Origin: Escherichia coli
GTDB taxonomy: Bacteria > Pseudomonadota > Gammaproteobacteria > Enterobacterales > Enterobacteriaceae
Direction: 5' to 3' (one strand)
Length of the DNA: 64,000 nucleotides
Assembly: GCF_022846255.1 (NCBI RefSeq)
Contig: NZ_AP025682.1
This document shows, in pieces, positions 22,351 through 62,539 of this stretch. The position numbers and the translations under genes are program-made. The notes beneath the pieces were generated by a model that had not been told where the DNA came from, did not search any database, and was given only the letters and a program-made list of their open reading frames with translations. Each line of letters begins with the position of its first letter. Positions within the stretch are counted from its first letter, which is position 1.

Positions 22351-23253
22351 ATGAAAAAAACGCTCGCAACATTATTTTTATTAACCTGTCTGGGGTCATC
22401 ATCCGCTTATGCGGATAACGCTTTGATTTTACAAACGGATTTTAGCCTGAAAGATGGTGCCGTCTCGGCGATGAAAGGGGTCGCTTTCGGCGTTGACCAT
22501 AATCTTAAAATATTTGATTTAACACACGAAATTCCACCGTATAACATCTGGGAAGGCGCTTACCGCCTGTATCAGACTGCCAATTACTGGCCGCAAGGTT
22601 CGGTGTTTGTTAGCGTGGTCGATCCTGGTGTTGGTACAGAGCGTAAATCGGTAGTGCTGAAAACCAAAAATGGTCAGTACTTCGTTTCACCAGATAACGG
22701 TACGCTCACGTTGGTGGCGGAATCGCTGGGTATTGAGAGCGTCCGGCAAATCGATGAAAAAACCAACCGTCTGAAAGGTTCCGAAAAGTCATATACCTTC
22801 CACGGTCGTGACGTGTATGCCTACACCGGTGCACGTCTGGCTTCCGGGGCGATCACGTTCGAGCAGGTGGGGCCAGAGCTTCCTGCAAAAGTTGTCGAAC
22901 TTTCTTATCAGAAAGCCAAAGCAACAAAAGGTGAAGTGAAGGGCAATATCCCGATTCTCGATATTCAGTACGGCAACGTCTGGAGCAATATCAGCGACGA
23001 GTTGCTGAATCAGGCAGGAATCAAACTCAACGACACGTTGTGTGTGACCATTTCCGAAGGTTCCCAGCAAAAATACGCAGGGAAAATGCCGTATGTCGCA
23101 AGCTTCGGCGATGTGCCGGAAGGCCAGCCGATGGTGTATCTGAACAGCTTATTGAATGTTTCCGTGGCGCTGAATATGGATAATTTCGCGCAGAAACATC
23201 AGGTTGCGTCTGGTGCTGACTGGAATATTGATGTGAAGAAGTGCGCTAAGTAA
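22351..23253 (+). CDS. DUF62 / SAM hydroxide adenosyltransferase-like protein with Sec signal peptide
   Basis: MKKTLATLFLLTCLGSSSAYA signal peptide with AxA cleavage site; ILQTDFS...MKGV and VVDPGVGTERK motifs characteristic of the SAM hydrolase/fluorinase-like family. Confidence 0.75.
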   Translation: MKKTLATLFLLTCLGSSSAYADNALILQTDFSLKDGAVSAMKGVAFGVDHNLKIFDLTHEIPPYNIWEGAYRLYQTANYWPQGSVFVSVVDPGVGTERKSVVLKTKNGQYFVSPDNGTLTLVAESLGIESVRQIDEKTNRLKGSEKSYTFHGRDVYAYTGARLASGAITFEQVGPELPAKVVELSYQKAKATKGEVKGNIPILDIQYGNVWSNISDELLNQAGIKLNDTLCVTISEGSQQKYAGKMPYVASFGDVPEGQPMVYLNSLLNVSVALNMDNFAQKHQVASGADWNIDVKKCAK

Positions 23254-23262
23254 GTTACTGAT

Positions 23263-23293
23263 GCCGGATGCGGTGTGGCGCACCGCATCCGGC
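23263..23293. repeat. REP-like palindrome between convergent DUF62 gene and uvrD
   Basis: GCCGGATGCGGTG tggcg CACCGCATCCGGC, 13-bp perfect stem. Confidence 0.6.
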
Positions 23294-23307
23294 AACGGAA
23301 TCGTAAA

Positions 23308-25470
23308 TTATACCGTCTCCAGTCGGGCGTAAGCCGCCACCAGCCATTTAATACCCTGGCCCTGGAACGCCACCTGCAAACGGCTATGCTCACCGCTGCC
23401 TTCCATATTGACGATGGTGCCTTCACCAAACTTAGCGTGGCGTACGCGCTGGCCGAGCTTGTAGCCGCTGTCGTTCTCGACCATCGGCGTACCCATCCGT
23501 TGATGGCTGACCGGGCGGCTTACCGTGGCGCGCAGGCGCACCTCTTCCACACACTCTTCCGGCAACTCACCGATAAAGCGCGACGGGCGATGGTAAACCT
23601 CTTTGCCATATAGACGGCGGGTTTCCGCGTAGGTCAGCGTCAGTTTCTGCATCGCGCGGGTTACGCCAACGTAGGCCAGACGGCGTTCTTCTTCCAGACG
23701 CCCGCCTTCATCCAGCGACATCTGGCTTGGGAACATGCCCTCTTCCATACCAACGATAAACACCTGCGGGAATTCCAGACCTTTCGCCGAGTGTAGCGTC
23801 ATCAACTGCACAGCATCCTGCCAGGTATCCGCCTGCCCCTCGCCCGCTTCCAGCGCCGCATGGGAGAGGAATGCCTGCAGCGGCATTAAATCTTCGTCTT
23901 CTTCGTTGTAGCTGAACTGGCGCGTTGCCGTCACCAGTTCCTCTAAGTTTTCGATACGCGTCTGACCTTTTTCGCCCTTCTCCTGCTCGTACATGGTGCG
24001 CAGGCCGGAGTCTTTAATTACCCGGTCAGTCTGTACATGCAGCGGCATATCGGCAGTTTCCTGCGCTAAGGCGTCGATTAATTCCATAAATCGCTGTAAG
24101 GCGCTGGCAGCACGTCCGGCGAGGGCTTTTTCCTGCAACAGTTCACGGCACGCTTGCCACAGCGTTAACTGTCGATCGCGCGATGCCTGACGTACCACGT
24201 CCAGCGTCCGGTCACCAATACCCCGCGTTGGCGTATTCACCACACGCTCAAAGGCCGCGTCGTCGTTACGGTTGGCAATCAGGCGTAAATACGAGAGCGC
24301 ATCTTTGATTTCCTGGCGTTCGAAGAAGCGCATCCCGCCGTAAATACGGTACGGCATACTCGCCTGCAACAGTGCTTCTTCCAGCACGCGCGACTGGGCG
24401 TTGCTGCGGTAGAGAATGGCGCACTCGGCAAGCGCCCCACCATTGTCCTGCCAGGTTTTGATGCGGTTAACGACAAAACGCGCTTCGTCGAGTTCGTTAA
24501 AAGCGCAATAGAGGGAAATCGGCTCACCGTCCGCGCCATCGGTCCACAACTTTTTACCCAAACGCCCGTTGTTGTTTTCAATCAGGGCGTTAGCGGCGCT
24601 CAGAATGTTGCTAGTGGAGCGGTAGTTTTGCTCCAGACGAATGGTTTCGGCACCGGGGAAATCATTGAGGAAACGCTGAATATTCTCTACCTGCGCCCCA
24701 CGCCAGCCGTAGATTGACTGGTCGTCATCGCCAACGATCATCACTTTGCCAGTATCGCCCGCCAGCAGGCGGATCCACGCGTACTGAATGTTGTTGGTAT
24801 CCTGGAATTCGTCCACCAGGATGTTAGTAAAACGTTCGCGGTAGTGTTGCAGGATATGCGGCTTGTTAAGCCACAGTTCGTGGGCGCGTAGCAGTAGTTC
24901 AGCGAAGTCTACCAGGCCCGCGCGGTCGCACGCTTCCTGATACGCCTGGTACACCTTCTGCCAGGTCTGCTCCACCGGATTACCGTAGCTTTGAATATGA
25001 TGCGGACGCAGCCCTTCATCTTTCTGGCTGTTGATGTACCACATTGCCTGGCGCGGCGGCCACTGCTTCTCGTCGAGGTTCATGGCTTTGATCAGACGCT
25101 TAAGCAGGCGCAACTGGTCTTCGCTGTCGAGGATCTGGAAATCCTGCGGCAGGTTGGCGTCCATATGGTGCGCACGCAGCAGACGGTGTGCCAGCCCGTG
25201 GAAAGTGCCGACCCACATACCGCCCTGGCTGGTACCCATCAGTTGCCCGATACGATGGCGCATTTCCGCCGCCGCTTTGTTGGTAAATGTCACCGCCATA
25301 ATCGAGTACGGCGAGCAGTTTTCCACGCTCATCAGCCAGGCGATACGATGCACCAGTACGCGCGTCTTACCACTGCCCGCGCCCGCCAGCACCAAAAGGT
25401 TGCTGCGTGGCGCGGCCACCGCTTCGCGCTGTTTGTCATTAAGGCTGTCGAGCAGGTAAGAAACGTCCAT
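23308..25470 (-). CDS. uvrD: DNA helicase II
   Basis: MDVSYLLDSLNDKQREAVAAPRSNLLVLAGAGSGKTRVLVHRIAWL... 720 aa from internal ATG of ORF 23308..25656. Confidence 0.97.
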   Translation of the reverse strand: MDVSYLLDSLNDKQREAVAAPRSNLLVLAGAGSGKTRVLVHRIAWLMSVENCSPYSIMAVTFTNKAAAEMRHRIGQLMGTSQGGMWVGTFHGLAHRLLRAHHMDANLPQDFQILDSEDQLRLLKRLIKAMNLDEKQWPPRQAMWYINSQKDEGLRPHHIQSYGNPVEQTWQKVYQAYQEACDRAGLVDFAELLLRAHELWLNKPHILQHYRERFTNILVDEFQDTNNIQYAWIRLLAGDTGKVMIVGDDDQSIYGWRGAQVENIQRFLNDFPGAETIRLEQNYRSTSNILSAANALIENNNGRLGKKLWTDGADGEPISLYCAFNELDEARFVVNRIKTWQDNGGALAECAILYRSNAQSRVLEEALLQASMPYRIYGGMRFFERQEIKDALSYLRLIANRNDDAAFERVVNTPTRGIGDRTLDVVRQASRDRQLTLWQACRELLQEKALAGRAASALQRFMELIDALAQETADMPLHVQTDRVIKDSGLRTMYEQEKGEKGQTRIENLEELVTATRQFSYNEEDEDLMPLQAFLSHAALEAGEGQADTWQDAVQLMTLHSAKGLEFPQVFIVGMEEGMFPSQMSLDEGGRLEEERRLAYVGVTRAMQKLTLTYAETRRLYGKEVYHRPSRFIGELPEECVEEVRLRATVSRPVSHQRMGTPMVENDSGYKLGQRVRHAKFGEGTIVNMEGSGEHSRLQVAFQGQGIKWLVAAYARLETV

Positions 25471-28931: not shown

Positions 28932-29119
28932 TATGGATTGCCTGTAAAGTTCATCGCTTTCTGCTTTCTATCATCGCAGGAGAAGGCGTAAAAGCAAGCG
29001 TTTAGCGACTCTTTATGAAGTCTGAAAAGTGAGGAAATGCTGCGAGTATAACGCTTACTCGTGGCGATTTATGTTTTGCTGGTAGTTTCGTGATCGGCAC
29101 CTCGCGCCAGGATGGCTTT

Positions 29120-31147
29120 ATGCACTATCGCAATGTGGTTTGTTTGTTGGCTTGTTCGTTGTTTTTATCGTCGGCATGGGGATGTCGGCTTTCCGCGCCT
29201 GAACATAATATTTACCAGAAACAGGGAAAAGGCGTGGTGTACCTGCGCCCTTATCAGAAAACAAATCTTTCTCTACCTGACGTGAAATACAAGAGATTGC
29301 GTCGTTTACCCAATTTATTAATAGACCCAACAACACTAGACGAATGGGATAAAGAACCTCCTCTGACCGATCTGACAACCGACTACCTCTATGAAGGCGC
29401 ACAAGCCTGGTATCCTCATTATTCCTGGCATAGCGATGGTCGCTATATCCTCTACGCAGGTGAAGTTGTGCAAAACCCTCCCGGCACTCCTCCCGTCGAT
29501 GTCGCCTCGTTCAAGGCATGGGGTGATTTTGCCGCAGATAAACACAGTCTCTATTTCGAAGGCAAGCGCACCGATGACAATGGCGGGGGAAATAGCTTAG
29601 ATATCAAAACACTGCATCAGGTGAAATTCCGTTTCCCCTGGAAACCTGACGTTCTGGGGCTGATATTACGTGACGCTAATTTCTTATATGTTGATGGACA
29701 TCGCCTCGCTGACCCCGAGAGTTTTCGCGTGCTGGCGCAAAAATCCTGGGATCAGCGAGGAAAGTTTTCCACCACGTTTAACCCCTGCGTTGCCGTACCA
29801 TTTGGCCCCTGGGATACATTAGCCCGTACACACACGGAAATGATGATCAACGGCGAACAGCTTGATGCCGACCCGGAGACATTTACTGTCGTACGCTGGA
29901 TGCCCGGTTCGTTATTAACCTGGCGAGATAAAAGCGGCCTGCACCGGAAGGTGCTGAATCAGGGAAATCTGGACAAAGATAGGGCAAATAGCTGCGCGGC
30001 GTTCAATTTGCAGGAACACTCTGTTTCATGGCGCAAAGGGCCTGAATGCCAGCAAGAAGTCCTACCCGGCCTCGATCCAGAACAATTTCACCCTCTTAGT
30101 AATACCGTCGCGCAGTATCAGGACAAACTGTACACCATCAAAAAAACAGAATTTGGCGAAAACAGGCTGGATATCGTCACGCTGGATAATCCTGCTTTGG
30201 TGATTAATAAACGCTTTAACGCGGGAAGAACTCACGGCTATTTACTGACCAAATTACAAGTTCGTGGTGAAGAAGAAGATGGTCTCCAGGTATTCGAGTC
30301 TTCCGGGCCGCTTATCCTGATGGATTATCGTGTTCCTGACGAGCGTGAGGCTCACCTTAGCGATAGCTCCCATTACAAGAAATGGTATGCACACGACGAT
30401 CGTTATGTTTACGCATTCGATGGCTCACAGCTTTGGCGCTACCCAACACCCAATACCAGGGCCGTGCGGGTGAACTGGAAAACCGGACATTCAGGATATG
30501 GCTATTGGGCAGACTACCGTAGTGGAGAGTTAGACGGCAGACTTCTTGAGGATGGTGCGTTTATTCCAACGGGAATCCCCTATAACTCATCCGTTAACAT
30601 TGCTCAATATTCTGCTGGCGAGAGCGCTTTTCTCGTCGGCGAAACCGATGTTAGCTGGCGTAAGCTTCGCTCTACAGACCAGCAATGGAGTCAATGGGGG
30701 AAACTCCGCGATATTGACCCAAAAGCATTTCACCCCATCACCGATCGTATCGCGCAGTACAAAAATACTCTGTACATTGCGAAATTGTCTCCTTTTGGTG
30801 AAGACATCCTGGAAACCCTAACGCTCGACTCTTCTGCACCTTTCCTGAACCAACGCATTAACGCAGGGAAAGACCATGGCTACTTTATGCGCTCTTCCCG
30901 ATTACGCGACGATATTCAAATTTTTGCCATTGATGGACCATTGAAGACCACCGAACGCTTCGCTTATGACAATCGCTATGTTTATACCTGGATCGGTAGC
31001 CAACTTTATCGAACCGCGTCGCCCTGTCCGGCAAAGACACGTAATCTGGATCAGAACATGTTTTCATCCAATGATGACATCATCATCCTGAAGACGGATG
31101 AAGAGTGCCGCAAAGCACCAGACATTGAGCAAACTTTGAAGCCCTGA
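29120..31147 (+). CDS. DKNYY-repeat family secreted protein
   Basis: ORF 29090..31147 begins at GTG; ATG at 29120 has an AGGA Shine-Dalgarno 7 nt upstream; signal-peptide-like N-terminus; repeated DK.(S/T)LY / D.RYVY motifs and a duplicated internal module. Confidence 0.7.
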   Translation: MHYRNVVCLLACSLFLSSAWGCRLSAPEHNIYQKQGKGVVYLRPYQKTNLSLPDVKYKRLRRLPNLLIDPTTLDEWDKEPPLTDLTTDYLYEGAQAWYPHYSWHSDGRYILYAGEVVQNPPGTPPVDVASFKAWGDFAADKHSLYFEGKRTDDNGGGNSLDIKTLHQVKFRFPWKPDVLGLILRDANFLYVDGHRLADPESFRVLAQKSWDQRGKFSTTFNPCVAVPFGPWDTLARTHTEMMINGEQLDADPETFTVVRWMPGSLLTWRDKSGLHRKVLNQGNLDKDRANSCAAFNLQEHSVSWRKGPECQQEVLPGLDPEQFHPLSNTVAQYQDKLYTIKKTEFGENRLDIVTLDNPALVINKRFNAGRTHGYLLTKLQVRGEEEDGLQVFESSGPLILMDYRVPDEREAHLSDSSHYKKWYAHDDRYVYAFDGSQLWRYPTPNTRAVRVNWKTGHSGYGYWADYRSGELDGRLLEDGAFIPTGIPYNSSVNIAQYSAGESAFLVGETDVSWRKLRSTDQQWSQWGKLRDIDPKAFHPITDRIAQYKNTLYIAKLSPFGEDILETLTLDSSAPFLNQRINAGKDHGYFMRSSRLRDDIQIFAIDGPLKTTERFAYDNRYVYTWIGSQLYRTASPCPAKTRNLDQNMFSSNDDIIILKTDEECRKAPDIEQTLKP

Positions 31148-38654: not shown

Positions 38655-38670
38655 GCCTTTCTGATATATA

Positions 38671-38876
38671 AAAAAACGCCTGCTCTTATTACGGAGCAGG
38701 CGTTAAAACAGGTCTGTATGACAACAAGTGGGTGCTTCACTCAACGTTGTGTCCATGGTGTCTGATGAGGCATAAGCGACATCTGTCAGTGGACGATAAG
38801 CACCGTAAACGGCTCTGCGTCATTCCGGAGTTTATGAGGCACTAAGGCGAACATAAGAGATGGAATGAGCATCTAC
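38671..38876 (-). ncRNA. glmZ: GlmZ small regulatory RNA (SraJ/RyiA)
   Basis: minus-strand sequence GTAGATGCTCATTCCATCTCTTATG ... AACGCCTGCTCCGTAATAAGAGCAGGCGTTTTTT matches GlmZ as I recall it; terminator hairpin plus U-run at the 3' end; lies in the hemY-aslA intergenic region. Confidence 0.8.
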
Positions 38877-39300: not shown

Positions 39301-40956
39301 ATGGAATTTTCGTTTTCACCCAAACTTCTTGTTGTTGCTGTCGCCGCAGCTCTTCCTCTCATAGCCAGCGCAGCAGATACCCCGTCAACCGCCACCGCAC
39401 GCAAAGGCTTTGCCGGATACGATCACCCAAACCAGTATCTGGTTAAACCGGCGACCACTATTGCCGACAACATGATGCCGGTGATGCAGCATCCTGCACA
39501 AGACAAAGAAACCCAGCAGAAACTGGCGGAACTTGAGAAAAAAACCGGTAAGAAACCGAACGTGGTTGTTTTCTTGCTGGATGATGTGGGCTGGATGGAC
39601 GTTGGCTTTAACGGCGGCGGCGTGGCGGTGGGTAACCCTACACCAGATATCGACGCCGTTGCCAGCCAGGGGCTGATTTTAACTTCGGCGTATTCTCAAC
39701 CGAGTTCTTCCCCAACCCGCGCCACGATTCTCACCGGACAATACTCCATCCACCACGGCATTCTGATGCCGCCAATGTACGGGCAACCGGGCGGTCTGCA
39801 AGGGTTAACCACGCTGCCGCAGTTGCTGCACGATCAGGGCTACGTCACTCAGGCCATCGGGAAATGGCATATGGGGGAAAACAAAGAGTCGCAGCCGCAG
39901 AACGTTGGCTTTGATGATTTCCGCGGCTTTAACTCGGTATCCGATATGTATACCGAATGGCGTGATGTTCACGTCAACCCGGAAGTCGCCCTGAGCCCGG
40001 ATCGTTCTGAATACATCCAAAAACTGCCGTTCAGCAAAGATGACGTTCATGCCGTGCGCGGCGGTGAACAGGAAGCCATTGCCGACATTACGCCGAAATA
40101 TATGGAAGACCTGGATCAACGCTGGATGGAATATGGCGTTAAGTTCCTCGACAAGATGGCGAAGAGTGATAAGCCTTTCTTCCTCTATTACGGCACTCGC
40201 GGCTGTCACTTCGATAACTACCCAAATGCGAAATATGCGGGTAGCTCTCCGGCGCGCACCTCTTACGGCGACTGCATGGTGGAGATGAACGATATCTTCG
40301 CCAATCTGTATAAAGCACTGGAGAAAAACGGTCAGCTTGATAACACGCTGATTGTGTTCACCTCTGATAACGGTCCGGAAGCCGAAGTTCCGCCGCACGG
40401 TCGCACGCCGTTCCGCGGTGCGAAAGGTTCTACATGGGAAGGCGGCGTTCGTGTGCCAACCTTCGTTTACTGGAAAGGCATGATCCAACCGCGTAAATCT
40501 GACGGCATTGTCGATCTGGCGGATCTCTTCCCTACGGCACTGGATCTGGCGGGGCACCCTGGGGCGAAAGTAGCGAATTTAGTACCGAAAACCACCTTTA
40601 TCGATGGTGTGGACCAGACATCTTTCTTCCTGGGAACAAATGGTCAGTCTAACCGTAAGGCCGAGCACTACTTCCTCAACGGCAAACTTTCTGCTGTGCG
40701 TATGGATGAGTTCAAGTATCACGTCCTGATCCAGCAACCGTACGCGTATACCCAGAGCGGGTATCAGGGTGGATTCACCGGCACAGTAATGCAAACGGCG
40801 GGATCGTCGGTGTTTAACCTGTACACCGATCCGCAGGAAAGCGACTCCATCGGCGTGCGCCATATCCCAATGGGTGTACCGCTACAGACCGAAATGCACG
40901 CGTATATGGAGATCCTGAAAAAATATCCACCACGCGCGCAGATTAAATCTGATTAA
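39301..40956 (+). CDS. aslA: arylsulfatase
   Basis: 551-aa product with signal peptide and sulfatase motif region ([13 protein letters not shown]). Confidence 0.9.
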
Positions 40957-40984
40957 GCCGGCGCTATCGCTGAGATCTACCTTT

Positions 40985-41010
40985 GCCGGATGCGATGCTG
41001 ACGCATCCGG
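40985..41010. repeat. REP-like palindrome downstream of aslA
   Basis: GCCGGATGCG atgctga CGCATCCGGC. Confidence 0.55.
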
Positions 41011-41023
41011 CAATCAACCGCAG

Positions 41024-41048
41024 GCGGCCACAAAATGGCCGCTTTTTT
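41024..41048 (+). terminator. rho-independent terminator of aslA
   Basis: GCGGCCA caaaa TGGCCGC followed by TTTTTT. Confidence 0.6.
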
Positions 41049-42282
41049 ACTTATTCACCACCAGCAAATGCGCCTGCATAATGTCGCTGGCCGGACGACC
41101 GTGCGCCAGTAAATCAACCATTGCTTTAAGATATGGCGGTAGATGGCGGAAATAACGCTGATACCCGGCACACAAATAATTCAGCCCGGGTTTGCCGCTG
41201 GCATCGAGCATAAAGCGGTGTTTCGGGCAGCCTCCCCAGCACGCTTTTAACACGTTGCAACTGCGACACTGTGCCGGTAACTGCTTGAATTTATCTTCAC
41301 CAAATGCCTGCTGTTGCGGGGAATCAATCATTTCTGCAATCATCTGCTGAAGCATATTCCCTAGTCGATACTGCGGATAAACATAGTGATCGCAGGCATA
41401 AACGTCACCGTTGTGCTCAACAATCACCGAGCGCCCACAGGTTGGCTGATGATGGCAAACCGCGCCCGGTGCGCCGACAAAATTGGCGAACGCCCATTCG
41501 ATATTCATTACGAAAATCTTGCCGACGTCGCGCTTAATCCAGTGGTCGAAAATCGCCACCAGAAACTCACCGAACTCTTGCGGGCACACCGACCATTCCG
41601 TCAGTTCGCCCTGAATATCGCCGGGAGCATGTAGCTTAAGTCCAGCATGAGCAGCCGTTTCATCAGCCAGGCGCTCGACCACCGGAATAAACTGGATGAA
41701 CTCAACACCTGCATCACACAGAAAATCATAGACTTGCAAAGGTTGTAACGCACTGGTGCGATTGACGCAGACCAGCACGTTATAGTCGACATGATGTTTT
41801 TGCAGGAGCGTCAGAGCACGCATCACCAGCTTATGCGTTGGTCTGCCACCTTTGGTCACGCGATATTGATTGTGGATCTCAGCCGGACCATCCAGCGATA
41901 ACCCTACAAGAAAATGATTTTCTGCCAGAAATGCACACCATTCGTCATCGAGCAGCACGCCGTTAGTCTGGAAGCTATTACTTATCTTCCTGCCAGCACC
42001 ATATTTCGCCTGTAGCGCCACGGCACGGCGGTAAAAATCCAGCCCGAGTAACGTTGGTTCGCCGCCCTGCCAGGTAAAAGCCACTTCGTTTTGGGTTTCG
42101 CTGGCAGCGATATAGTGACGGACATACGCTTCCAGCGTGTCATCGTCCATATGCGTGACTGGCTTTTCGTGGTAAAGGGATTGTTTTTCGAGATAAAAAC
42201 AGTAGTCACAGTTCAGATTACAATCAGAACCGCTCGGTTTCGCCATCACATGAAAAGCACGCGTTGGAACCTGTTGCTGCAT
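41047..42282 (-). CDS. aslB: anaerobic sulfatase-maturating enzyme homolog (radical SAM)
   Basis: CxxxCxxC radical-SAM motif (CNLNCDYCFY); 411 aa from internal ATG of ORF 41047..42312. Confidence 0.9.
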   Translation of the reverse strand: MQQQVPTRAFHVMAKPSGSDCNLNCDYCFYLEKQSLYHEKPVTHMDDDTLEAYVRHYIAASETQNEVAFTWQGGEPTLLGLDFYRRAVALQAKYGAGRKISNSFQTNGVLLDDEWCAFLAENHFLVGLSLDGPAEIHNQYRVTKGGRPTHKLVMRALTLLQKHHVDYNVLVCVNRTSALQPLQVYDFLCDAGVEFIQFIPVVERLADETAAHAGLKLHAPGDIQGELTEWSVCPQEFGEFLVAIFDHWIKRDVGKIFVMNIEWAFANFVGAPGAVCHHQPTCGRSVIVEHNGDVYACDHYVYPQYRLGNMLQQMIAEMIDSPQQQAFGEDKFKQLPAQCRSCNVLKACWGGCPKHRFMLDASGKPGLNYLCAGYQRYFRHLPPYLKAMVDLLAHGRPASDIMQAHLLVVNK

Positions 42283-42428: not shown

Positions 42429-42505
42429 TGGTCGGCGAGAGAGGATTCGAACCTCCGACCCACTGGTCCCAAACCAGTTGCGCTACCAAGCTGCGCTACT
42501 CGCCG
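42429..42505 (-). tRNA. proM: tRNA-Pro (anticodon UGG)
   Basis: reverse complement folds as a 77-nt tRNA with ...TTTGGGA... anticodon loop and encoded CCA. Confidence 0.9.
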
Positions 42506-42547
42506 AAATACTGCTTTTTGAATTTTTAGTTCAATTCTTTAAAGTCG

Positions 42548-42634
42548 TGGTGCGAGGGGGGGGACTTGAACCCCCACGTCCGTAAGGACACTAACACCTG
42601 AAGCTAGCGCGTCTACCAATTCCGCCACCTTCGC
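42548..42634 (-). tRNA. leuT: tRNA-Leu (anticodon CAG)
   Basis: 87-nt type II tRNA with long variable arm, anticodon loop CTTCAGGT, encoded CCA. Confidence 0.9.
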
Positions 42635-42654
42635 ATTGTCACAACTTCTAATAA

Positions 42655-42731
42655 TGGGGTGGCTAATGGGATTCGAACCCACGACAACTGGAATCACAAT
42701 CCAGGGCTCTACCAACTGAGCTATAGCCACC
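42655..42731 (-). tRNA. hisR: tRNA-His (anticodon GUG)
   Basis: 77 nt including the extra 5' G(-1); anticodon loop ATTGTGA; encoded CCA. Confidence 0.9.
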
Positions 42732-42788
42732 ACTACAAATCTTGTTACGCGGTATTACTACCACCGCAGCTCAAGCGCCGGGACTAAA

Positions 42789-42865
<77 letters not shown>

Positions 42866-59149: not shown

Positions 59150-59479
59150 TTACGCCAGGTTAGCGTCGAGGAACTCTTTCAACTGACCTTTAGACAGTGC
59201 GCCCACTTTGGTTGCCGCCACTTCACCGTTTTTGAACAGCAGCAGAGTCGGGATACCACGGATGCCATATTTCGGCGCAGTGCCAGGGTTTTGATCGATG
59301 TTCAGTTTTGCAACGGTCAGTTTGCCCTGATATTCGTCAGCGATTTCATCCAGAATCGGGGCGATCATTTTGCACGGACCGCACCACTCTGCCCAGAAAT
59401 CGACGAGGATCGCCCCGTCCGCTTTGAGTACATCCGTGTCAAAACTGTCGTCAGTCAGGTGAATAATTTTATCGCTCAT
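59150..59479 (-). CDS. trxA: thioredoxin 1
   Basis: [41 protein letters not shown]... 109 aa with WCGPC active site. Confidence 0.97.
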
Positions 59480-59609
59480 ATATAACTCCACAGGAATAAG
59501 CCTGGCGTGTTGGTTTCGTTGTTGGTGTAACATTAACCAACTAAAGGTTGACTTTATTTCACCGGATACGCTTTCGTAAAGCAATAGTAAGCTGATATTC
59601 TACCACACT

Positions 59610-62502: not shown

Positions 62503-62525
62503 GCCGGATGCGATGCTGACGCATC
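62503..62525. repeat. REP-like palindrome between gppA and rep
   Basis: GCCGGATGCG atgctga CGCATC, same palindrome family as at 40985 and 23263. Confidence 0.5.
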
Positions 62526-62539
62526 TTTTCCGGCCTTGA

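Follow-up and report, generated by a model that had tools for sequence, protein, structure and literature searches.

Degenerate REP-derived palindromes at three convergent gene junctions of an Escherichia coli genome segment

Introduction

Descriptions of repetitive extragenic palindromic (REP) sequences and BIME elements go back to the 1990s and include their polymorphism among strains, their link to strain-specific DNA and the insertion of IS1397 into them. In a stretch of 64,000 nucleotides of Escherichia coli DNA (contig NZ_AP025682.1 of assembly GCF_022846255.1; hereafter the window), a preliminary description placed closely related palindromes built on GCCGGATGCG...CGCATCCGGC at 23263-23293 (site 1), 40985-41010 (site 2) and 62503-62525 (site 3). 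It proposed that these palindromes resemble REPs, which serve as terminators and as targets for REP-associated transposases, and that they may mark recombination hot spots. The question that these loci raise is whether the palindromes are REPs in the sense in which those of the species are defined and, where they are not, what they derive from.

Two features define the REPs of E. coli, a 5′ GTAG that is essential and tolerates no mutation and a stem with an AA-GC bulge; when the stem is made perfect, the activity of TnpA_REP is lost (PMC8266576; PMC3333891). In agreement with this, the binding of TnpA_REP is abolished in a “no bulge” REP that carries A12G/A13C (PMC3479197). A BIME-1 occurs as a single copy and consists of two inverted REPs joined by a long, conserved L linker in which an IHF site is located (PMC3333891).

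Results

Architecture of the three sites

Site 1 (23263..23293, no strand assigned) was found exactly where it had been placed. It is formed by perfect 13-bp arms, GCCGGATGCGGTG-TGGCG-CACCGCATCCGGC, with the loop TGGCG at 23276-23280, and both the reading of the sequence and the fold revealed neither GTAG/CTAC nor a bulge. Site 2 is also a real palindrome, but its core, GCCGGATGCG-ATGCTGA-CGCATCCGGC, occupies 40985-41011 and thus ends at 41011 instead of 41010, and its arms extend to 40983-41013. The complete element (40983..41013, no strand assigned) has perfect 12-bp arms, TTGCCGGATGCG and CGCATCCGGCAA, around the loop ATGCTGA.

Site 3 is REP-like, as had been proposed, but it runs to 62538 instead of 62525 and holds no GCCGGATGCG...CGCATCCGGC palindrome. 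It bears the left motif arm only, and its right side reads CGCATC-TTTT-CCGGC-CTTG up to 62538. This site is a lone full-length REP on the minus strand (62503..62538), CAAG-GCCGGAAAAGATGCGTCAGCATCGCATCCGGC in REP orientation, which folds into an outer stem (62503-08/62529-34), a 3x3 internal loop (UGC/UUU), an inner stem (GATGC/GCATC) and the apical loop TGAC (62517-62520). The AA/GC bulge is kept, whereas GTAG has become CAAG and GGATAAG has become GGAAAAG; the comparison with the aslA-proximal REP of K-12 gives 4 mismatches in 37 positions. All three sites are extragenic stem-loops, with lengths of 27-36 nt, which fall inside the range of 20-40 nt for E. coli REPs.

Chance does not account for the palindromes. 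In the window, 5 copies of the 10-mer GCCGGATGCG were counted against 0.40 expected, a number that none of 100 shuffles reached, and the full gapped palindrome GCCGGATGCG...CGCATCCGGC occurs twice against 0.00 expected. One-mismatch variants of GCCGGATGCG showed no enrichment in the window (13 versus 8.6 expected). An ungapped scan of the 64 kb for REP tails, tags, z-type heads (z1 and z2 consensus sequences) and linker found no REP-related sequence beyond the three sites. Throughout the window GGCCTAC is absent, as are the L-linker motifs CAATTTATTG and CAATAAATTG, and none of the 3 matches to GTAGGCC lies at any site. Rfam at gathering thresholds gave no match at sites 1-3, and the RefSeq record of K-12 MG1655 (NC_000913.3) has no annotated REP features in the orthologous 42 kb.

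The orientation of the window is reversed with respect to K-12 (corA ... uvrD ... aslA/aslB ... gppA/rep). The RNAs that Rfam returned in the window are the GlmZ sRNA (38670-38876, minus strand), the TrxA 5′-UTR thermometer (59450-59549, minus strand) and four tRNAs (42432-42865, minus strand), a set that is as expected given the synteny with K-12.

Neighboring genes

All three sites lie between the stop codons of convergent open reading frames, in keeping with the convergent or intergenic junctions that had been described. Site 1 is flanked by the stop codons of a SAM hydrolase gene (at 23253) and of uvrD (at 23308), with gaps of 9 and 14 nt, respectively, between hairpin and stop. The SAM hydrolase gene (22351..23253, plus strand) belongs to the SAM hydroxide adenosyltransferase family and encodes SAM_HAT_N and SAM_HAT_C, formerly DUF62. 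It lies between yigE and uvrD; about 2,410 of 5,426 genomes (44%, complete E. coli) have the gene, which is missing from K-12. Site 2 follows the stop codon of aslA (39301..40956, plus strand) by 28 nt and is 35 nt away from that of aslB (at 41047). At site 3, the hairpin is 9 nt from the stop of gppA (62493) and 1-5 nt from that of rep (62540).

Between site 1 and the uvrD stop, a 10-nt indel at window positions 23297-23307 (GAATCGTAAA or GAGTTGTAAA) is strain variable and shifts the distance from the hairpin to the uvrD stop from 14 to 4 nt.

The window is 100% identical to strain E2348/69 over 1,350 bp at uvrD and 96-98% identical overall. Among complete genomes, there was no perfect 601-bp match at the site 2 and site 3 junctions. 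The homology between the window and E2348/69 is interrupted over 30249-31093, where E2348/69 has two other hypothetical genes and K-12 only yzcX. An open reading frame of 685 aa on the cyaY-dapF side (29090-31147, plus strand) gave no Pfam or PADLOC match, and this region looks like a strain-variable island.

GTAG and bulge

No GTAG or CTAC stands beside any of the sites, whose flanks are TGAT and AACG (site 1), CTTT and AATC (site 2), and AAGT and CTTG (site 3). The AA-GC bulge is absent at sites 1 and 2, where GC is opposite GC, and is kept at site 3 alone. Sites 1 and 2 carry the natural equivalent of the A12G/A13C correction, GGATAAGG to GGATGCGG. No window site contains two inverted REPs, each having one hairpin. 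With GTAG at no site and the bulge missing from two of them, the palindromes do not match the REP consensus of the species. The suggestion that they are targets of REP-associated transposases lacks support for the same reasons, given that the correction at sites 1 and 2 is the one that abolishes binding. Since GTAG and the bulge are both needed by TnpA_REP and the linker is lost, sites 1-3 are probably immobile and no substrate of the transposase, and they would bind no IHF, as the linker is absent.

Two-REP elements at the orthologous loci

The aslA/aslB junction of K-12 contains, in order, a REP (GCCGGATGCGATGCTGACGCATCTTATCCAGCCTAC), a 34-nt linker (AGAACGCTGCAATTTATTGAATTTGCACGATCAT) and an inverted REP (GTAGGCCGGATAAGGCGTTTACGCCGCATCCGGC). 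An equivalent doublet of a y-REP, a linker and a GTAG-REP occupies the yigE/uvrD junction in K-12 and in the divergent strain AST85. Overall, two-REP alleles at the loci of sites 1 and 2 were seen in K-12, ETEC1720, AST85 and 2020CK-00188. The linker of the long alleles, and of these only, contains ATTCAATAAATTG, which matches the IHF consensus WATCAANNNNTTR at 12 of 13 positions. When the K-12 element was used as the query, at least 40 matches per genome were obtained in all 5,425 genomes, which shows that it is a true member of a high-copy family.

Of each doublet, nothing but the pair of outermost head arms is left at sites 1 and 2 of the window, and it is because these outer arms are mutually complementary that both sites are perfect palindromes. 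The resemblance to REPs that had been noted is thus borne out by arms that are REP head arms, by K-12 orthologues that belong to a family of at least 40 copies and, at site 3, by an IS1397 insertion. The identity of the arms with REP heads, together with the intact orthologous elements of K-12, places the sites in the REP family. Judged by their sequences, sites 1-3 are REP derived, and none of them is a canonical E. coli REP.

Alleles at site 2

Six allele types were recovered at the aslA/aslB junction. The long element occurs in the K-12 orientation and, in 2020CK-00188, inverted and on a different left-flank haplotype. The short alleles comprise the window-type palindrome and two that belong to the inverted haplotype, namely, a lone y REP without CTAC and a perfect palindrome whose loop, TCAGCAT, mirrors the ATGCTGA of the window. 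In the sixth, SE11-type allele, 1,578 bp of aslA and most of the adjacent REP are deleted.

Site 2 of the window corresponds exactly to the long allele minus 77 bp, with the direct repeat CGCATC at both boundaries. The short alleles of the inverted haplotype were reconstructed with the same exactness, as the loss of 73 bp (ATCCGGC repeats) and of 76 bp (GATGCG repeats). The 6-7-nt direct repeats that flank the collapses come from the REPs themselves. Three independent and exactly reconstructable deletions favor collapse over insertion.

The window-type short allele was found in 851 genomes and the intact element in the K-12 orientation in about 2,200, including Nissle 1917. Each flank haplotype was found with both long and short alleles, and at this junction the long allele of Nissle 1917 stands against the short allele of E2348/69, two strains that we take to be of phylogroup B2. 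The element of 2020CK-00188 is identical to that of K-12 at 97/104 positions in reverse complement versus 83/109 in direct orientation. The two flank haplotypes also differ by a left segment of 13 versus 21 nt, a difference for which a simple inversion does not account. Most short alleles at site 2 carry a one-sided G-to-A change that breaks a pair, and the perfect form of the window was found in 9 genomes only. This one-sided loss of pairing points to drift rather than to selection on the hairpin.

The SE11-type deletion of 1,578 bp starts past window position 39439 and ends in the tail/CTAC of the neighboring REP, with its right end beside a TATC microhomology. Strains of this type (SE11, HH97) are left with about 46 codons of aslA and keep aslB, the linker and the y REP. 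The loss of these 1,578 bp of aslA was observed in about a third of the sampled E. coli genomes.

The 5′ end of aslA (39408-39423, CTTTGCCGGATACGAT) and the left edge of site 2 (40981-40996, CTTTGCCGGATGCGAT) are identical at 15 of 16 positions. By a rough estimate, the chance expectation of such a look-alike is approximately 0.0015 per window. Homologous recombination between the REP edge and this 16-mer of aslA was considered as the origin of the SE11 deletion and rejected, given that the junction lies 16 nt further on.

Alleles at site 1

Comparison with K-12 and AST85 indicated that the left arm and flank of site 1 come from the head of the distal REP and that the right arm and flank come from the head of the uvrD-proximal REP. 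Over its left 20 nt, which comprise flank and arm, site 1 agrees with the context of the distal REP at 19/20 positions, versus 13/22 for that of the proximal REP. A model with a 72-bp deletion gives the right length of 31 nt, with 3 mismatches in the loop. In the global alignment, which was run with near-free gap extension, the scattered blocks are spurious, and the two terminal blocks were the only ones used.

The preliminary description had suggested that the junctions be compared with those of strains that lack the adjacent accessory gene. All of the approximately 2,410 genomes with the SAM hydrolase gene have the short form of site 1, and the two gene-negative genomes that were read (K-12 and AST85) have the long two-REP form. 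The right boundary of the SAM hydrolase insertion/deletion is 9 nt from site 1. Because the long and short forms never share a background, the polarity of the change is less secure here than at site 2.

Six distinct alleles of site 1 were found, in which pair 3 is C-G, A-T or G-C and pair 5 is G-C or A-T. One-sided intermediates are among them, and 95% of cells are paired overall. In shuffles of the covariation, the observed values were reached in 27-37 of 500. The paired stem changes, which keep the palindrome, are suggestive of covariation, and the same pattern would equally be given by hairpin-templated copying or by conversion from other REPs.

Conservation of site 3 and insertion of IS1397

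Site 3 is identical in K-12, and its junction is covered to at least 80% in 5,417 of 5,426 genomes. The site is near-fixed in E. coli, and both gppA and rep are core genes. In one isolate, strain JNE25-005, IS1397 was found in the apical loop TGAC of site 3, with TGAC duplicated; this insertion was not observed at sites 1 and 2. IS1397 is reported to insert specifically within E. coli REPs (PMC1525189), and its presence in the loop therefore marks site 3 as a member of the REP family. IS621 is another insertion sequence with REPs as its targets.

Hairpin stability and termination

On both strands, the RNA folds of sites 1-3 have energies of −21 to −33 kcal/mol, with z scores of −5 to −6. The values are −33.5 and −29.7 kcal/mol for site 1 (z of about −6) and −21.5 and −21.6 kcal/mol for the bulged fold of site 3. 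The sites had been expected to act as terminators, which the terminator scan does not bear out: it called none of them as an intrinsic terminator and no T-tract at any of the three. At site 3, the plus-strand tail TTGATTATTT is moderately T rich, and the scanner cannot model the bulged stem.

A terminator-like hairpin, AGGCGGCC-ACAAA-TGGCCGCTT followed by a T-run, lies 11 nt downstream of site 2 (41022..41050, plus strand), and the scan made its call there at 41022-41044. This hairpin is likely the true intrinsic terminator of aslA, located outside the repeat. The K-12 terminator lacks 9 nt (GCGGCCGCCGATTTC instead of GCGGCCACAAAATGGCCGCTTTTTT), which indicates that the 3′ end of aslA varies among strains independently of the repeat.

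Discussion

The reading that we favor, with a probability of roughly 0.78, is that sites 1-3 are degenerate members of the REP/BIME family, sites 1 and 2 being collapsed BIMEs and site 3 a lone REP without GTAG, and that all three are now immobile relics. The ancestor at sites 1 and 2 would have been a BIME-1-like doublet made of a REP, an L linker of about 34 nt with an IHF-like site, and an inverted REP. An internal deletion of 72-77 bp between 6-7-nt direct repeats supplied by the two inverted REPs, most likely through replication slippage across the hairpin-prone doublet, would have taken out the linker together with the tails of the two REPs, their two GTAG/CTAC tags and the halves that form the bulge. 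What remained would be the two outer head arms, which are perfectly complementary. Site 3 would be a lone REP that kept its bulge and lost GTAG by point mutation. The polarity from doublet to singlet is one that we infer from unrooted comparisons. For Pseudomonas fluorescens, Bertels and Rainey proposed, on the basis of unpublished work, that deletion of the sequence between REPs gives REP singlets with a long palindrome (PMC3116915).

The polarity could be reversed, with the short palindromes as the ancestral “empty” state and the doublets of the K-12 type as later BIME-1 insertions. Such a history would agree with the complete split of the short and long forms of site 1 by background and with the two orientations of the element at site 2, as independent insertions might give. 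We nevertheless regard it as quite unlikely: the short alleles already hold the upper stem or loop of the left REP that is found in the long allele of their own haplotype, so that the “inserted” piece would be an incomplete element (tail, linker and most of a REP) that completed a REP exactly, three times. Each would-be insertion is, moreover, flanked by a 6-7-nt repeat, and a truly empty site was found in 0 of 25 sampled genomes. Just as improbable is that TnpA_REP (RAYT), and not slippage, excised the BIME interior and left the collapses as its footprints, since the 6-7-nt direct repeats fully explain all three junctions. TnpA_REP does cleave and recombine BIMEs in vitro, and models of excision exist (PMC3333891); the excisions of REPINs in Pseudomonas leave asymmetric footprints with part of one REP (PMC3116915), and the left boundary of site 2 can be placed at C|T (GCATC|TTATCC). 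However, C|T is reported to be indispensable at cleavage sites (PMC3333891), and the right boundaries are C|C at site 2 and C|A and G|T at the others. As none of these right-hand boundaries offers a C|T, RAYT excision was rejected as the primary explanation. In addition, TnpA_REP is a monomer, which offers no clear mechanism for coordinated excision (PMC3479197).

For site 1, a different origin could be sought in the uvrD-proximal REP alone, through quasi-palindrome “correction” by template switching within the hairpin. End to end, site 1 and the proximal REP are 84% identical and differ in the tag, in the loop and in the bulge, where GC replaces AA, and the paired changes of the arms among strains fit hairpin-templated copying. 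This origin is very unlikely given the left flank and arm, which follow the distal REP (19/20) and not the proximal one (13/22), and it would also need a separate loss of the distal REP and the linker. There is scarcely any probability left for the view that all three sites are ordinary REPs that match the consensus and act as terminators and transposase substrates. In its favor are head arms that do not differ from REP heads, a position between convergent genes as is typical of REPs and, at site 3, the retained bulge and the recognition by IS1397. Against it, GTAG/CTAC is at no site, and the tests of tag and bulge contradict it. The stems of sites 1 and 2 have the GC that corrects the bulge and abolishes the binding of TnpA_REP, no T-tract was called by the scan, and a separate terminator adjoins site 2.

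The collapsed and degenerate REPs that we favor may still have an effect on the transcripts in which they lie. About 60% of E. coli REPs are located between convergent genes, and a correlation of their presence there with higher expression of the two partners is reported; REPs can be partial Rho-dependent terminators and blocks to decay, although no general effect of terminal REPs on mRNA half-life was found (bioRxiv 10.64898/2026.03.23.713779). According to Liang 2015 (cited in PMC12306157), ribosomes stall at REPs located no more than 15 nt from a stop codon. In the transcript of either convergent gene, the hairpins could block 3′-to-5′ exonucleases or attenuate read-through, and those that start no more than 15 nt from a stop (SAM hydrolase, uvrD, gppA and rep) could impede terminating ribosomes. 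A residual role of sites 1-3 as stable 3′-UTR hairpins is plausible on these grounds. A bolder proposal is that the collapsed hairpins are kept by selection as bidirectional RNA 3′-end structures, as the paired substitutions at site 1 might suggest, and that the aslA-aslB element is a recurrently remodeled expression switch for the convergent genes; we consider this unlikely.

The proposal that the palindromes mark recombination hot spots has partial support, from two of the three loci. At site 1, the presence of the SAM hydrolase gene is fully linked to the collapsed form, with the boundary 9 nt off, and site 2 has three collapses, an inversion and a 1,578-bp aslA deletion that ends in the REP tail. 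It has less support at site 3, which lies between the core genes gppA and rep at a junction that is nearly invariant apart from one IS1397. In K-12, about two-thirds of the BIME DNA and 71% of the BIME-1 length are in strain-specific loops (PMC1187871).

The kind of element described here is already known: the sites are decayed remnants of known REP/BIME elements, with little importance beyond annotation. For annotation, no perfect GCCGGATGCG...CGCATCCGGC palindrome ought to be counted among the active REPs, because both features needed by the transposase are missing from it. These loci are also clean natural examples, resolved to the base pair, of the conversion of a REP doublet into a single hairpin through short-repeat deletion, a route for which there was previously only an unpublished observation mentioned for Pseudomonas. 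For tests of how REPs affect convergent transcripts, natural variants are at hand in the alleles (long, short and inverted) of the aslA-aslB and yigE-uvrD junctions.

A scan of a genome collection for the perfect palindrome gave, among the matches listed, mostly chance occurrences in unrelated high-GC genomes. Citrobacter and Pluralibacter, also among the matches listed, have lone perfect GCCGGATGCG...CGCATCCGGC hairpins without GTAG/CTAC a few nucleotides past stop codons. This indicates that the collapsed or corrected form recurs in enteric bacteria and suggests that the bulge-less, tag-less form arises repeatedly.

When set against known systems, the sites are closest to the REPs, or palindromic units, of E. 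coli (y, z1 and z2; group-2), with which they share an identical head arm (GCCGGATGCG / CGCATCCGGC), the extragenic location between convergent genes and a GC-rich stem-loop of about 30-37 nt. Sites 1 and 2 differ from these REPs in being bulge-less and in having two head arms instead of a head and a tail. Site 3 shares with E. coli REPs the AA/GC bulge and the targeting by IS1397, and it has the length of 37 nt that is reported for z2; it departs from them in its tag, where CAAG replaces GTAG, and in its wider internal loop. Its foot is y-like (CCGGAT) on a body of z2 length, so that its class is ambiguous. With intrinsic terminators, the sites have in common a stable GC-rich hairpin just past the stop codons, readable on both strands; unlike them, sites 1 and 2 have no U-tract after the stem, and site 3 has only TTGATTATTT on the plus strand.

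The architecture of BIME-1 is shared, as single copies, by the alleles of K-12, ETEC1720, AST85 and 2020CK-00188, whereas the window lacks the linker and the second REP. In the K-12 elements themselves, the partner of the y REP is y-like or of z2 length and not the textbook z1 of BIME-1. The REPIN singlets of Bertels and Rainey (2011) are decayed and immobile remnants of a presumed mobile doublet, as these sites probably are. They differ in that they occur in Pseudomonas fluorescens, with unrelated REP sequences, whereas in E. coli the boundaries and the direct repeats are resolved. A derivation of the REPIN-singlet type is reconstructed here as an exact deletion at site 2 and in its two sister alleles and as an approximate one at site 1.
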